Below, one piece after another: positions 4,906 through 10,484 of a DNA stretch of 64,000 nt (position 1 is the first letter of the stretch; every line of letters begins with the position of its first letter). Source of the DNA: Marine group II euryarchaeote REDSEA-S11_B3N4 (GTDB lineage: Archaea > Thermoplasmatota > Poseidoniia > Poseidoniales > Thalassarchaeaceae); NCBI GenBank assembly GCA_001628485.1, contig LURR01000017.1, positions 2,599 through 66,598 on the forward strand, given 5' to 3'. A program made the translations under genes and the position numbers. The notes below the pieces were generated by a model. It was not told the DNA's origin. It saw only the letters and a list, made by a program, of their open reading frames with translations, and searched no databases.

Positions 4906-4958
4906 TTAACTCTGCCTATCTAAGAAAGGTAATGGCCTAACCATCTCAGCCTTCACAC

Positions 4959-5852: not shown

Positions 5853-6538
5853 TGGACGTCCTATCTACATTATACCTCATGTCCGACCGATCCGACATGA
5901 ATGCAAAACTGATTACTGAGTTCATTGGAACCTTCTTCCTCTGCCTGACAATTTGTGTAGCCGGAGTATTCGGTCTGTCTGGTCAAAACGCCCCTTTCGC
6001 CATAGCAGGCACTCTGATGGTTATGATATATGCCGGTGCCCATATTTCCGGTGCTCACTACAATCCTGCAGTCACCATCTCGATCTGGATCAGGGGGGCA
6101 TGTGAGAAATCGGAGGTAGTGCCCTATGCTCTCTCCCAACTCGCAGCAGGATTACTAGCGGCTCTCATTGCTGCGAATCTGATTGTTACCGGTAGTATCT
6201 CTGAGGATTACCCAATTGAGATGTTCGAACCTTCGGGTATGGAGACCTCAATCATTGCATCCGAGTTACTCTTCACCTTCGCATTAGTTTTCGTAATACT
6301 CAATGTAGCAACCTCAGAATCCAATGAAGGAAACGGATACTACGGTGCTGCCATTGCATTGGTAGTCCTAGCCGGGGCTCTAACTGTAGGGAGCATATCT
6401 CTGGCTTCATTCAATCCGGCGGTCTCGCTCTCTCTGGTAGTGGTTGGGAAAATGGCTGCTTCAGACCTATGGCTGCATTTGGTACCTCAGTTGTTTGGAG
6501 CCGGGGCAGCATCTTTGGTTTACAAGTGGAATACCTAG
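5849..6538 (+). CDS. MIP-family channel (aquaporin / aquaglyceroporin)
   Basis: Two NPA boxes (SGAHYNPAVT and FNPAVSL) and six hydrophobic helices. Start ATG overlaps the fpg stop (ATGA). Confidence 0.85.
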   Translation: MMDVLSTLYLMSDRSDMNAKLITEFIGTFFLCLTICVAGVFGLSGQNAPFAIAGTLMVMIYAGAHISGAHYNPAVTISIWIRGACEKSEVVPYALSQLAAGLLAALIAANLIVTGSISEDYPIEMFEPSGMETSIIASELLFTFALVFVILNVATSESNEGNGYYGAAIALVVLAGALTVGSISLASFNPAVSLSLVVVGKMAASDLWLHLVPQLFGAGAASLVYKWNT

Positions 6539-7506
6539 TCTAACTTCTGAGACATCTCTATCCCCCTAACTAGCGCCATTAGTATCTCATTCCTAGGTGT
6601 TGGCACTCCAACCTCCTCTCCCTTAGAAATCACGGCACCACAAAGGACATCTATCTCGGTTTTTCTTCCAGCCATGAGGTCCTGAAGCATAGAAACTCTA
6701 TTCTCGGCAGTCGATTCGACCACCCTCCTTAGATAACTCTCAGAGTCGGAATCTCCTAGATCTATTCCCGATGCCTTGGCGACAGCCTCGGCCTCTCTCA
6801 TAGCCTCAATTGCCTGATGCCACAATTCTGGAACCTCTACCAAGGCCCCATTCCTTACACCTGCGATAGCACAGATTGGATTAATTGCTACATTTATCAT
6901 CAGCTTCCTCCAAATTTCTCCTTCGATATCTATTGACCAATTAGGTACCAGCCCCCCTTCATCTAGCAATGAAATGAATTCAGTAGCAATAGAATTCGGT
7001 TCAGAGGAATTAACTGAACCTAGAGAAATTGTCCCTCTCCCCGTCCAGTGGACAGCACCGTCTCCATCTCTCCAAGCGGAGTGAGTGGTAGTTCCCCCCA
7101 GCACTCGCTCCCAACCGACTCTGCTGGCAATGATTCCCGAATTTCCAAGTCCGTTCTGAATGCTGATTACTAATGCGTCTTGTTTAATCAGATCTTCAGC
7201 GATAGAAGCCAATTGGGGAGTTGAACCAGACTTGCCAGAGACAACTGCTACATCACAAGTTCCGCACACTTTCTCCTGTAGGGGGCCCTTCTCACTATCG
7301 ATAATCTCGAAACGCTCCCCTGGAATCATTTCCACAGATCCCTCGGGAGTGAATAGAGTCAGCCCCTCAAGTAAATCTCTAGCAGTCCTTCCTCTCGAAA
7401 CACAAACTAGTTCAGCATTGGTGTCAGATAGACATCCTGCGAGCACACCGCCAATCGCTCCAGTCCCAAGAATAGCAATTCTCACTCGCAACCCTCCGAT
7501 GGACAT
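6535..7506 (-). CDS. panE: 2-dehydropantoate 2-reductase (ketopantoate reductase, ApbA/PanE)
   Basis: Rossmann IAILGTGAIGG, QNGLG. C-terminal PanE signature SMLQDLMAGRKTEIDVLCGAVISKGEEVGVPTPRNE. ORF extends to 7554; the Met just before the Rossmann motif is used here. Confidence 0.8.
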   Translation of the reverse strand: MSIGGLRVRIAILGTGAIGGVLAGCLSDTNAELVCVSRGRTARDLLEGLTLFTPEGSVEMIPGERFEIIDSEKGPLQEKVCGTCDVAVVSGKSGSTPQLASIAEDLIKQDALVISIQNGLGNSGIIASRVGWERVLGGTTTHSAWRDGDGAVHWTGRGTISLGSVNSSEPNSIATEFISLLDEGGLVPNWSIDIEGEIWRKLMINVAINPICAIAGVRNGALVEVPELWHQAIEAMREAEAVAKASGIDLGDSDSESYLRRVVESTAENRVSMLQDLMAGRKTEIDVLCGAVISKGEEVGVPTPRNEILMALVRGIEMSQKLD

Positions 7507-9816
7507 CTTGCCGAAAGGTGTACAACGACTCCTGAATCGTCCGCAGTTACCCATAAGGCCCGTTCTAGAGTAGAACTACCATTCGCTACAGCTTCGACGA
7601 AATACGAATCTCCGGCGTCAATCCAGTCTCCGATGCTTACTTCCCAGATTCCAGACTGAGGGGAGTCTCCATGCCACTCCAAAGACAGTCCAATCCTCTC
7701 CGATCCTCTGTTGAAAATATAGAAAGTATCTGCCTCAATCCTCTGATTGAGGAGGATTGCAGAATGTCCTACACTAGAATCTTCTGTGGAGACGAATACA
7801 TCGGGTCCCGCGATTATCCTGAATGAGGCCAGCGAACCATCGGTACCACAAATCGCCAGCCATCCCTCTCCGCCGATACCTATCGAACCATTCCCGCTCA
7901 GATTCCCTTCAAGCCTGATCGGGGAGTAGTTGCTCATCTCTACTGACCAGTTCCCCCCAGTGTCCACTTGTGCCGCAATCTCGCTAGATGGGCAGAAAGG
8001 GGATCCTCTATCGGAGTGGGAGAGAATATCTCCGCTGGAAACGACTCCAGTAGGAATTTTCCATTGCCCATCCATGACCTGTATAGATGGCTCTGAGCCA
8101 TCAATTGAAATCAGCCATGGCCCCTCGGTCGAGTTCTCCCTCTCAAGGAAAACAATAGGGCCAAAGGATCTGCCCTGCGAATCAAAAATCTCCGAGCTCT
8201 GAATCGCGCCACTGTTTCCTCTAAGGCACAACTCCTGTATTCCCGAAGTTAGATTACTCTCGTTCATAGTCTCCCAGTAGGCTCCCTCGACGAATATATT
8301 CCCTCCATCTCCAGCATCAAAATTAGTACAAATTATCGGTTTGTCTAATCCTCCAGAAAGGCTCCAGAATGGGCCAATTAAACCCCTGCTAGAAAACTCA
8401 TGAAGCAAGATCTCATGCTCTACCTCGAAGCCTGAGACTTCGACTAGTACCTTTAGCAGATGATTCGAGAAATTCCCCTCTGGAGGGGTAATGGAGATAT
8501 CTAAGACGCTAGTCTCGGACTGCGCAACACCATCGAATCGACATGTCTCTGGAAGATCAGAACAATCGGTGCTGAGAACCCACTCCTGAGATCGAGACCC
8601 CTCAATCCTCATCTGAATCCATCCGGATACAGGCATCACCCCTTCTGGCTCCAAATTCAGCGAAATTACTTGCAACTCACCCCCGGAGAACCCTACCTCT
8701 TCTGGCCACTCTTCAGTAGAAATCCCCCCAATGTAGTCCTCCATTTCGTAGGAGGGAACAGATCCCGGCAGCCCTGCCAGGAGTACCACACTCGCTACAG
8801 CCACGAAGCGACTCTTGAACCTCTCATCTAACCCAGATTGTTCGTCAAGGACGATTGGCTGAGGGAGATTATCCGGATTGAAACGCTGCCATGCAGCTAC
8901 GAAGGCAAGGAAAACCCATGGGGTCCATTTGGCTGTTGCGAAAACCACTACCATCAGGAAGAGCACGATTAGGAACACTGATGTCTGGGTACTCCCACTC
9001 CTCATTTCCGCTGGACCAATAATTGCATGGAGTAGCCTATCCCCTGGTAGGCCTGGTATGGGGAGCATCATTATCCACCCGACTAAGGAGAGTCCTACTC
9101 CAGAAATACCAACGGGATGCAACCATTGGAGACGAATTTCCAGATGTTCCCCCAACAAAGAATCGGCTAGATAGCCAGAAATCAGACAATGGAACTGCCA
9201 ACTCGATAGATCCCAACGCCCTTCTGGATGGAATTGGAACCATATCGAGCTTCCTCTGCCCAATCGCCCCAACAATTCCGAATGGCCACCATGTAGGAAT
9301 TGGAAATACGATTGGGGCAATGTGCCCTATTTCTATCCCGAATCTCCTTGCGATAAGAACCCTGCAATAGCTTGCTATGGATAGGGTAACTAATATTGGT
9401 AGCGTGAAAAAAATCAGCGAATTCATAATTTCGCCATTTCCAGACGAATTACTATCATATCCGTATTCAGAAACCCAATGTGATCCAGCCATGGTTAGGA
9501 AAACTGACATGACTGCCCACATCAGCAAACTCTGGTAATTTCCCATCACATTGCTTCCTTGAGGAATCCTTGAGATGATCAGAACAGGGGGATTCGTCTC
9601 TTCTAGCGATCCAACCAATCCCATCGTGTCAAGGTGTGAATTGAGTTCCTCCAGCTGTTTACTAACATCCTTCCCGTCTAAACCTCTGACCTCCCATGAA
9701 TTGGGATAACTGCCCTCGTTACCTAGTTCGAAGAATCTAGAGGTTATTACCTCGAGAAGTTCTCTGGTGCCCCAGGTCTCAGTGTCAATCAAAATCTCCT
9801 CTGGCATGATGCTCAC
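7482..9816 (-). pseudogene. M50 (site-2-protease)-like polytopic membrane protein fused to a ~450-aa sequon-rich extracytoplasmic domain; split over two overlapping frames (frameshift), zinc motifs apparently degenerate
   Basis: Frame A (9816..9037) reads ...LSIASYCRVLIARRFGIEIG...; the post-HExxH 'ARRxG' region of S2P is present, but the HExxH position reads SIASY. Frame B (9320..7482) reads MLPIPGLPGDRLL (cf. NLLPIxPLDGG) then a TM helix, then a large domain with many NxS/T sequons. See findings. Confidence 0.4.
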
Positions 9817-9866
9817 TCCCTGACCATCCCCGCGGGATGTCGGATTTTACCCCTGCTCTTTGATAA

Positions 9867-10484
9867 TCACTTGTTTTTGAAGCGCTTGAGGCGGAAAGTC
9901 TCCTCTCTCTCCATCTCTTCAAGCCTTAGTTGGATGAAAGTCTGAGCCTCTTTCATCTCAGGAATTACCTTGAACTCGAGAGCATTAACCCTTCTTTTAG
10001 TAGCTTCAATTTCTTCTAGAAGCCTCTTCAGAGTGGCCTCCATCTCGGCTGCTTTTACTACCTTCTCAACAAGTAGCGAGTAGGCGTCCGCCGCCTCGTC
10101 GATGTATGGAGAACCTCCAACCATCCCCAGCCCCCTATCCTCGACCGATAGTTTGAGGTTCTGCCCCTCGACCTTTGGAACAACTACGCCCATTATATTC
10201 CTCTTTGAGACCTGCACTTCTGGATGCTTCGACGAGGCTATGGCCGCGCTCTTTACTGCCAATCCGCCCTCTATCGATGAGGCTAGATTGATTGCTTGCA
10301 GTGCATCTCTGTATGTCCCCACTAGTCCCTCTCTGGCCTCGATCATTTCTGAGAGCAGAGTTCTGAATTCGTGGAATAGGCCATCCCTCTTCATCTTCAG
10401 AAGGTTGTATCCCGTAGAGGTCTGCTTTATCCTGCGCTTCAGGTTGATCAGCTCGGACCTGGTGGGCTTGATGTCTAGGGCCAT
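9867..10484 (-). CDS. atpD: A-type ATP synthase subunit D
   Basis: KPTRSELINLKRRIKQTSTGYNLLKMKRD... matches the conserved N-terminus of A/V-type subunit D. Last gene of the atp operon. Confidence 0.9.
   Translation of the reverse strand: MALDIKPTRSELINLKRRIKQTSTGYNLLKMKRDGLFHEFRTLLSEMIEAREGLVGTYRDALQAINLASSIEGGLAVKSAAIASSKHPEVQVSKRNIMGVVVPKVEGQNLKLSVEDRGLGMVGGSPYIDEAADAYSLLVEKVVKAAEMEATLKRLLEEIEATKRRVNALEFKVIPEMKEAQTFIQLRLEEMEREETFRLKRFKNK

Follow-up and report, generated by a model that had tools for sequence, protein, structure and literature searches.

A probable Poseidoniales-wide site-2 pseudo-protease encoded beside the A-type ATP synthase operon, and its deletion-disrupted copy in a Marine Group II genome

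The closest described branch to the gene considered here is that of the archaeal and EGY-type site-2 proteases (S2Ps; MEROPS M50B, Pfam PF02163; cores MjS2P 3B4R, RseP 7W6Z and 9J83). A member of the fold that has lost catalysis is known from plant chloroplasts: EGY3 is an S2P pseudo-protease without the HExxH motif and the ligand Asp, is highly conserved, and has for that reason been given a non-proteolytic role (bioRxiv 10.1101/101204; PMC9355673); it keeps a short C-terminal M50 fragment in which Asp is replaced by Glu (bioRxiv 10.1101/101204) and is reported to be plant-specific (PMC9355673). The iRhoms and Derlins are rhomboid pseudo-proteases that lost catalysis, gained domains and bind transmembrane clients (PMC6451368, PMC3149277). 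EGY3 is the only described S2P pseudo-protease that we found, with no prokaryotic one in the literature searched, and the same search returned nothing relevant on M50, S2P or pseudoproteases in Poseidoniales or Marine Group II (MGII). Here we consider a gene carried by a 64,000-nucleotide stretch (hereafter the window) of the MGII euryarchaeote REDSEA-S11_B3N4 (assembly GCA_001628485.1, contig LURR01000017.1, positions 2,599 to 66,598), an archaeon of the family Thalassarchaeaceae. In our judgement, positions 7482-9807 of the window are very probably one gene, encoding a Poseidoniales-wide M50 pseudo-protease with a dead active site, and broken in this copy by a deletion. A preliminary description of the window, made from the sequence without database searches, had proposed an inactive, frameshifted S2P-like membrane protein at this place and had held that no inactive archaeal M50 class was described, which agrees with the literature searched.

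Two minus-strand open reading frames (ORFs), 9037-9816 (259 amino acids, aa; frame A) and 7482-9320 (612 aa; frame B), lie in different frames and overlap at 9037-9320. The provisional product obtained by joining them has 260 matches among 5.8 billion proteins, mostly single ORFs of 795-820 aa, which come from Thalassarchaeaceae and Poseidoniales, i.e. MGII archaea, and for all the listed matches the precomputed Pfam annotation is blank. The best match, P0001, is a single ORF of 808 aa that is 93% identical; a single frame likewise runs across P0001 residues 1-807 in the Poseidoniales single-cell genome AG-343-E09 (L010) and across residues 1-808 in LULH01000044 (L011). Because such intact single-ORF orthologues exist, the two window ORFs are the halves of one gene for a polytopic membrane protein, as had been proposed. 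The peptides quoted in that proposal are present in the sequence; the native protein is not recovered by joining both frames, as the proposal had assumed, since 101 nucleotides (nt) are lost at the junction. Translation in fact starts at the ATG at 9807, giving the MPEEIL with which the orthologues begin, and not at the GTG at 9816.

When the family profile was searched exhaustively with HMMER against 1.84 billion representatives, 192 proteins were recovered at E<=1e-3. Ranking after the family's own members are proteins of 382-917 aa whose match is confined to profile positions ~46-343, with E from 1e-16 to 1e-5; all 21 of these lower-scoring proteins that were scanned are Pfam Peptidase_M50 (best E 6e-25), and they keep intact HE(M/L)GH and NLLPxGQLDGGH motifs. 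Compared by hhalign, a 24-member alignment of the family (A1) and an alignment of the nearest active M50 proteins (A2; P0204-P0268) matched with a probability of 99.6% and E 1.1e-23 over 409 columns, spanning the cytoplasmic N-domain and the entire membrane core as well as the extra C-terminal helix. When the A2 hidden Markov model (HMM) was run against the 409 ORFs of the window, only two were matched, frame A at model positions 40-206 (E 3e-13) and frame B at positions 257-428 (E 8.5e-6); the positions left unmatched between them, 207-256, are the region of the deletion, and the same search found no active M50 paralogue in the window. The active relatives in turn link weakly by sequence to 3B4R and to RseP 7W6Y. 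These sensitive tests agree with one another. The family has both a significant sequence relationship to the M50 superfamily and the S2P membrane-core fold, and the gene is a true S2P/M50 homologue, as had been claimed.

The residues required for catalysis are replaced throughout. In the hhalign mapping (P0001 numbering), the first His of HExxH corresponds to Ala145, the catalytic Glu to Ser146 and the second His to Arg149, the Asn of NxxP to Leu or Met 281 and the zinc-ligand Asp to Pro288. The preliminary description was right that HExxH is lost but had read its counterpart as SIASY, whereas the true equivalent, ASYCR (9375-9361), lies two residues downstream. We aligned 20 active M50 proteins together with 38 full-length relatives (649-886 aa, the weakest at E about 1e-43). 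None of the relatives has HExxH or the ligand Asp, both of which are present in 20/20 of the active proteins; of the 38, 30 carry A at position 145 and 32 carry S at position 146, and R or Q occupies position 149. The Asp column (288) is P in 35/38 and is followed by G-D290-R291; at position 290, MGIIb members have D and MGIIa members have G or N; the column of the Asn of NxxP holds L, M, I or S across the family, with M in the window (9069-9071, just upstream of 9036..9065). Neither HExxH nor NxxPxxxxDG with its ligand Asp, as expected of an active S2P, is therefore found, and other residues take the places of the catalytic Glu and of all three zinc ligands, which upholds the earlier statement that both metal-ligand motifs are absent. 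Because all four catalytic residues are lost, the family, as far as its sequences tell, cannot be a zinc metalloprotease and is hence a pseudo-protease. The loss of the motifs is unrelated to the decay in the window and, across the members aligned, is to be read as an ancient, family-wide and selectively maintained state.

Positions 149 (window 9361-9363) and 290 (9039-9041) co-vary almost without exception, the pair being R/D in 18 cases, Q with a residue other than D in 15, and Q/D in none, and this split coincides with that between MGIIb and MGIIa (Thalassarchaeaceae and Poseidoniaceae). The co-variation could reflect a salt bridge replacing the zinc site, or just phylogeny; as it is inseparable from phylogeny, an R149-D290 bridge was not retained as a replacement of the zinc site.

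The family is present in both Poseidoniales families, the Thalassarchaeaceae and the Poseidoniaceae; the sources that name members are all Poseidoniales or unclassified marine Euryarchaeota, and all of them annotate the product as 'hypothetical protein'. The ratio of non-synonymous to synonymous changes (pN/pS) is about 0.2 overall; in more diverged pairs the membrane core has about 0.06, against 0.30-0.34 in the ectodomain. By this measure the dead membrane core is the most constrained part of the protein and is under strong purifying selection. The order atp(K-E-C-F-A-B-D), gene, ApbA was found in eight loci that range from 93% to 37% identity (L001-L008) and in the deep-branching L013, and L012 has the same ApbA side downstream of the gene. 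Across loci, 55-85 nt separate the gene from atpD, and the gene's stop overlaps the start of ApbA; in the window, the gene begins 59 nt after atpD, so that its position directly downstream of the atp operon, noticed from the start, stands. The closest active M50 protein, P0204, has an unrelated neighbourhood and is not linked to the atp operon.

The native protein, of ~808 aa, is predicted to combine a small cytoplasmic alpha/beta domain, an S2P-fold core, an extra transmembrane (TM) helix and a glycosylated, disulphide-bonded array of immunoglobulin (Ig)-like domains outside the cell. In the full-length AlphaFold model (mean predicted local distance difference test, pLDDT, 75.8), residues ~14-80 form a cytoplasmic beta-beta-alpha-beta-beta domain common to active relatives, and TM helices are modelled at 90-115, 126-155 (the former HExxH helix), 195-223, 242-261 and 265-281. 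The LDG-like helix (288-302) is followed by three helices, at 305-325, 330-343 and 362-378, in place of the single TM helix that had been described before the ectodomain; the last of them is common to ectodomain-bearing active M50 relatives. The all-beta region, ~390-803, is confidently modelled, and the full-length model is uninformative on the membrane fold, as Ig-like matches dominate. The C-terminal 428 aa contain 9 N-x-S/T sequons, compared with 2.6 +/- 1.5 expected by shuffling (P about 0.001), and the 380-aa membrane part contains only 0-2; each of the sequons N549, N592 and N653 is kept by 18-22 of the 24 members. The presence of disulphide bonds would fit the conserved Cys residues and the CPxxGC at the C-terminus. 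Because of the sequon enrichment, the conserved sequons and the Cys pattern, the all-beta domain is almost certainly extracellular, and the large sequon-rich extracellular domain of the preliminary description is thereby retained.

Compared with the active S2Ps, the family thus has a homologous N-domain, membrane core and extra C-terminal helix, and it has in common with them the PxRRAL, (A)xP and HP(T)xxxG motifs; C-terminal extracellular beta-domains also occur in some active relatives. It differs from them in that HExxH has become A-S-x-x-R/Q and NxxPxxxxDG has become LxxPxxxxPG(D/G), in a two-residue insertion after the former HExxH helix (EIGH in MGIIb, varying elsewhere), in its specific ectodomain of ~430 aa, in its fixed place after atpD and in lying below the detection threshold of Pfam. 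With EGY3 it has in common that it is an S2P homologue without HExxH and the ligand Asp and yet is conserved. By contrast, the archaeal family has a full-length core, replaces the Asp with Pro and carries an Ig-like ectodomain, of which EGY3 has none; orthology between the two was not found, and the archaeal family arose independently of EGY3. The iRhoms and Derlins are eukaryotic and of unrelated fold and catalytic type, so that the comparison with them is one of analogy only. The nearest active M50 proteins (P0204-P0268 of A2; L014) often have extracellular beta-domains of their own, in one case Pfam NPCBM_assoc, and the ectodomain-bearing architecture may predate the loss of catalysis.

As to function, we propose that the conserved membrane core would keep the S2P groove in order to bind, not cut, the transmembrane segment of a partner, and that the Ig-like array would face the cell envelope or the medium. 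Because the gene has an invariant place after atpD, co-expression with the A-type ATP synthase is suggested, and with it a possible functional link. That the partner is the membrane sector of this synthase, for its assembly, stabilising or tethering, is doubtful at best. The binding of a transmembrane segment by the pseudo-protease, as by iRhoms, Derlins and EGY3, would be a role by analogy and is less certain than the identity of the protein. A more far-reaching version, in which these proteins are the first prokaryotic S2P pseudo-enzymes, act as a non-catalytic accessory of the ATP synthase and contact the envelope through the array, with the deletions in the gene as the outcome of selection on that exposed part, e.g. 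by viruses, seems to us improbable when taken as a whole.

Several results weigh against the reading of the gene as an M50 pseudo-protease with such a role. Neither frame has a relevant match in Pfam (at E<=1) or NCBIfam; PF02163 gave no match in the 24 family members even at E<=10, so that none scores above its gathering threshold, and the family profiles found no match among the sequences of the PDB. The model of the membrane domain is only moderately confident (pLDDT 67). Three polar residues, H162, E202 and D290, are invariant in A1/MGIIb and could in principle form another site. The putative link with the ATP synthase, finally, is drawn from gene order. The search against PF02163, which the preliminary description had suggested as a check that could refute the homology, was formally negative, yet the homology holds by the A2 HMM on both frames.

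The copy in the window is disrupted. Aligned with the DNA of L001 (98.3% nt identity) and L002 (98.7%), the gene shows a clean 101-nt deletion at window 9188/9187; the relatives that reveal it by comparison are 94-99% identical. What is left of the S2P 'AGP' motif immediately precedes the deletion, and the codons lost encode FVLFTAGSFLTVVGLILTPSSPPQLTGPPTIFETS, which is most of TM3 and the following outer loop; the frame is shifted as well, and a premature stop is found at 9037-9039. The broken frame reported earlier is thus confirmed in the sequence, but the lesion is not the small indel that had been supposed: it removes part of a TM helix. A simple 1-nt or programmed frameshift was rejected, the lesion being a 101-nt deletion and the orthologues needing no shift; a repeat-mediated deletion was rejected too, the junction having no repeat, microhomology or shared k-mer. 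Read as written, the window copy cannot make the native protein. Its frame is disrupted relative to the intact orthologues, and neither relaxed selection nor further decay is seen (pN/pS 0.20-0.28, no extra stops).

We lean slightly towards a real and very recent loss allele. It is quite possible, however, that the gene of the organism is intact and that assembly or whole-genome amplification produced the deletion artificially (a chimeric junction), in which case there is no pseudogene. The 22-mer of the deletion junction was not found in the GTDB genome collection or the JGI metagenome collection, and three records, a Red Sea MGII metagenome-assembled genome (MAG), the single-cell genome AG-343-E09 and LULH01000044, have the intact junction; the halves carry no further stops and the pN/pS between window and relatives is like that between intact copies, all of which fits an artefact, as does the fact that assemblies of this cluster do hold errors, L002 having a nonsense codon in the essential atpA and an additional G in a G-run. 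On the other side, there is no repeat or shared k-mer by the junction to mislead a de Bruijn assembler, the remainder of the compared 3.6-11 kb stretches is collinear, and the gene has lost other large segments in two further assemblies whose flanks are free of such deletions, a pattern that resembles real structural variation.

Among these other assemblies, L003 (3473-3544) lacks 177 nt, in frame, from the membrane core (aa 158-216), L009 lacks 99 nt, also in frame, from the ectodomain (aa 677-709), and L002 has, near 4915, +1 G in a G5 run of the same gene. No other indel of more than 4 nt is present in the ~46 kb of pairwise-shared flanks. At 1008-1010 of L002 (atpA codon 232), a stop replaces the Walker A glycine (GPF*SGKT) in this relative that is 98.7% identical; it is almost certainly a sequence error and a warning on assembly quality in this population. 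Compared with L010, the window has a compensated -1/+1 indel pair, 4 nt apart, at 8551-8555 in the coding region of the ectodomain.

The lesions also bear on what the protein does. It might be a dispensable surface protein, such as a virus receptor or an envelope or S-layer anchor, of which loss or shortening alleles segregate in natural populations and whose linkage to atp is positional only. Four independent lesions in 7 assemblies of one species cluster, with flanks of ~46 kb free of indels above 4 nt, would fit this, as would the faster evolution of the ectodomain (pN/pS 0.30-0.34) relative to the core and the glycosylated Ig-like domains, which recall S-layer and adhesin proteins. However, the same neighbours are retained in all lineages of the order examined, the sample is small, and two of the lesions are in contigs or MAGs with other defects (N-runs in L009); we regard a dispensable surface protein as an unlikely but live alternative.

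Very improbable is a hydrolase with a re-invented active site, in which residues such as H162, H264, D290 and E202 serve as new ligands. Invariant polar residues in or near the membrane in the MGIIb alignment and the low pN/pS of the membrane core (about 0.06), a sign of very strong purifying selection, could be taken in its favour, but in MGIIa D290 is replaced by G/N and H162 by G/P/Q, and E202 is lost; because H162, E202 and D290 are not kept there, a re-invented metal site is unlikely, and essentially all members have Ser in place of the catalytic Glu and non-ligand residues in place of both His. Finally, that the two ORFs are independent genes, which the preliminary description had named as a possible refutation, or that the M50 likeness is a chance similarity of hydrophobic sequences, is hardly credible: neither ORF is matched by Pfam or NCBIfam and a gene caller gives two products in the relative L002, but hundreds of single-ORF orthologues span both halves, the two frames match consecutive HMM coordinates and the hhalign E is 1e-23.

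The coordinates of the gene, its parts and its neighbours are collected in Table 1.

Table 1. Features of the pseudo-protease gene and its surroundings, in window coordinates
Feature	Position	Strand	Content or remarks	Basis
5' part of the gene, frame A	9188..9807	-	Cytoplasmic alpha/beta N-domain, TM1, TM2 (former HExxH), re-entrant region, start of TM3	ORF list; orthologue N-termini MPEEIL; A2 HMM match
3' part of the gene, frame B	7485..9187	-	TM4, TM5, LDG-like helix, three further helices, ectodomain	ORF list; A2 HMM match; 93% identical to P0001
Stop codon of frame B	7482-7484	-	TGA	
Equivalent of HExxH	9361..9375	-	A-S-Y-C-R	hhalign A1 vs A2; DNA read
Remnant of S2P 'AGP' at start of TM3	9190..9198	-	A-V-P	Alignments; Pro invariant in A1
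Deletion junction	9187..9188	-		DNA alignment with L001, L002; same junction vs L009, L010, L011
Equivalent of (N)LLPxGxLDGGH	9036..9065	-	L-P-I-P-G-L-P-G-D-R	hhalign mapping
Last transmembrane helix	8775..8825	-	Leads to the ectodomain	P0001 residues 362-378; AlphaFold models
Ectodomain, 428 aa	7485..8768	-	Several predicted Ig-like beta-sandwich domains	9 sequons, conserved Cys, C-terminal CPxxGC
Spacer between atpD and the gene, 59 nt	9808..9866	-	Motif AGGGGTAAAATCCGAC; 6-bp hairpin CATCCC-GCG-GGGATG; GGGAG resembling a Shine-Dalgarno sequence	
atpD, last gene of the A-type ATP synthase operon	9867..10484	-	Upstream neighbour	Pfam ATP-synt_D in L001-L008, L013
ApbA/PanE-like oxidoreductase	6535..7485	-	Downstream neighbour	GTG start overlaps the stop of the gene (GTGA, 7482-7485)

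On the downstream side, the mechanical ORF 6535-7554 (minus strand, 339 aa) over-extends the ApbA/PanE-like gene, the product of which has 312-326 aa in the relatives examined. The GTGA overlap, present in the window and in close relatives, suggests translational coupling. On the upstream side, no Rfam family matches the spacer and its folding is not significant (z -0.68), by which a known RNA element or a stable structure was rejected; the spacer may serve as an internal archaeal promoter, the TATA-like element being TAAAAT, some 43 nt ahead of the ATG. A related motif, GAGGGGTCAAA(A/T)CGGACC, occurs in the same spacer of L004 (5925-6000) and L005 (5947-6000), from lineages whose proteins are only 37-47% identical. 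The spacer is read as coding by some gene callers (P0057, P0069), and the 45-aa ORF 9785-9922 (minus strand) is a spurious translation of it, giving the same peptide as the false N-terminal extensions of these two proteins.

For annotation, the two ORFs of the window should be merged and flagged as deletion-disrupted. The family, until now annotated only as hypothetical and invisible to Pfam, belongs to uncultured and globally abundant MGII archaea, and a conserved gene beside their ATP synthase operon gains a name and a testable hypothesis. The iRhoms, Derlins and EGY3 proved to be important regulators or chaperones of membrane proteins, and the Poseidoniales family would offer a natural experiment on what the S2P fold does once cutting is lost.

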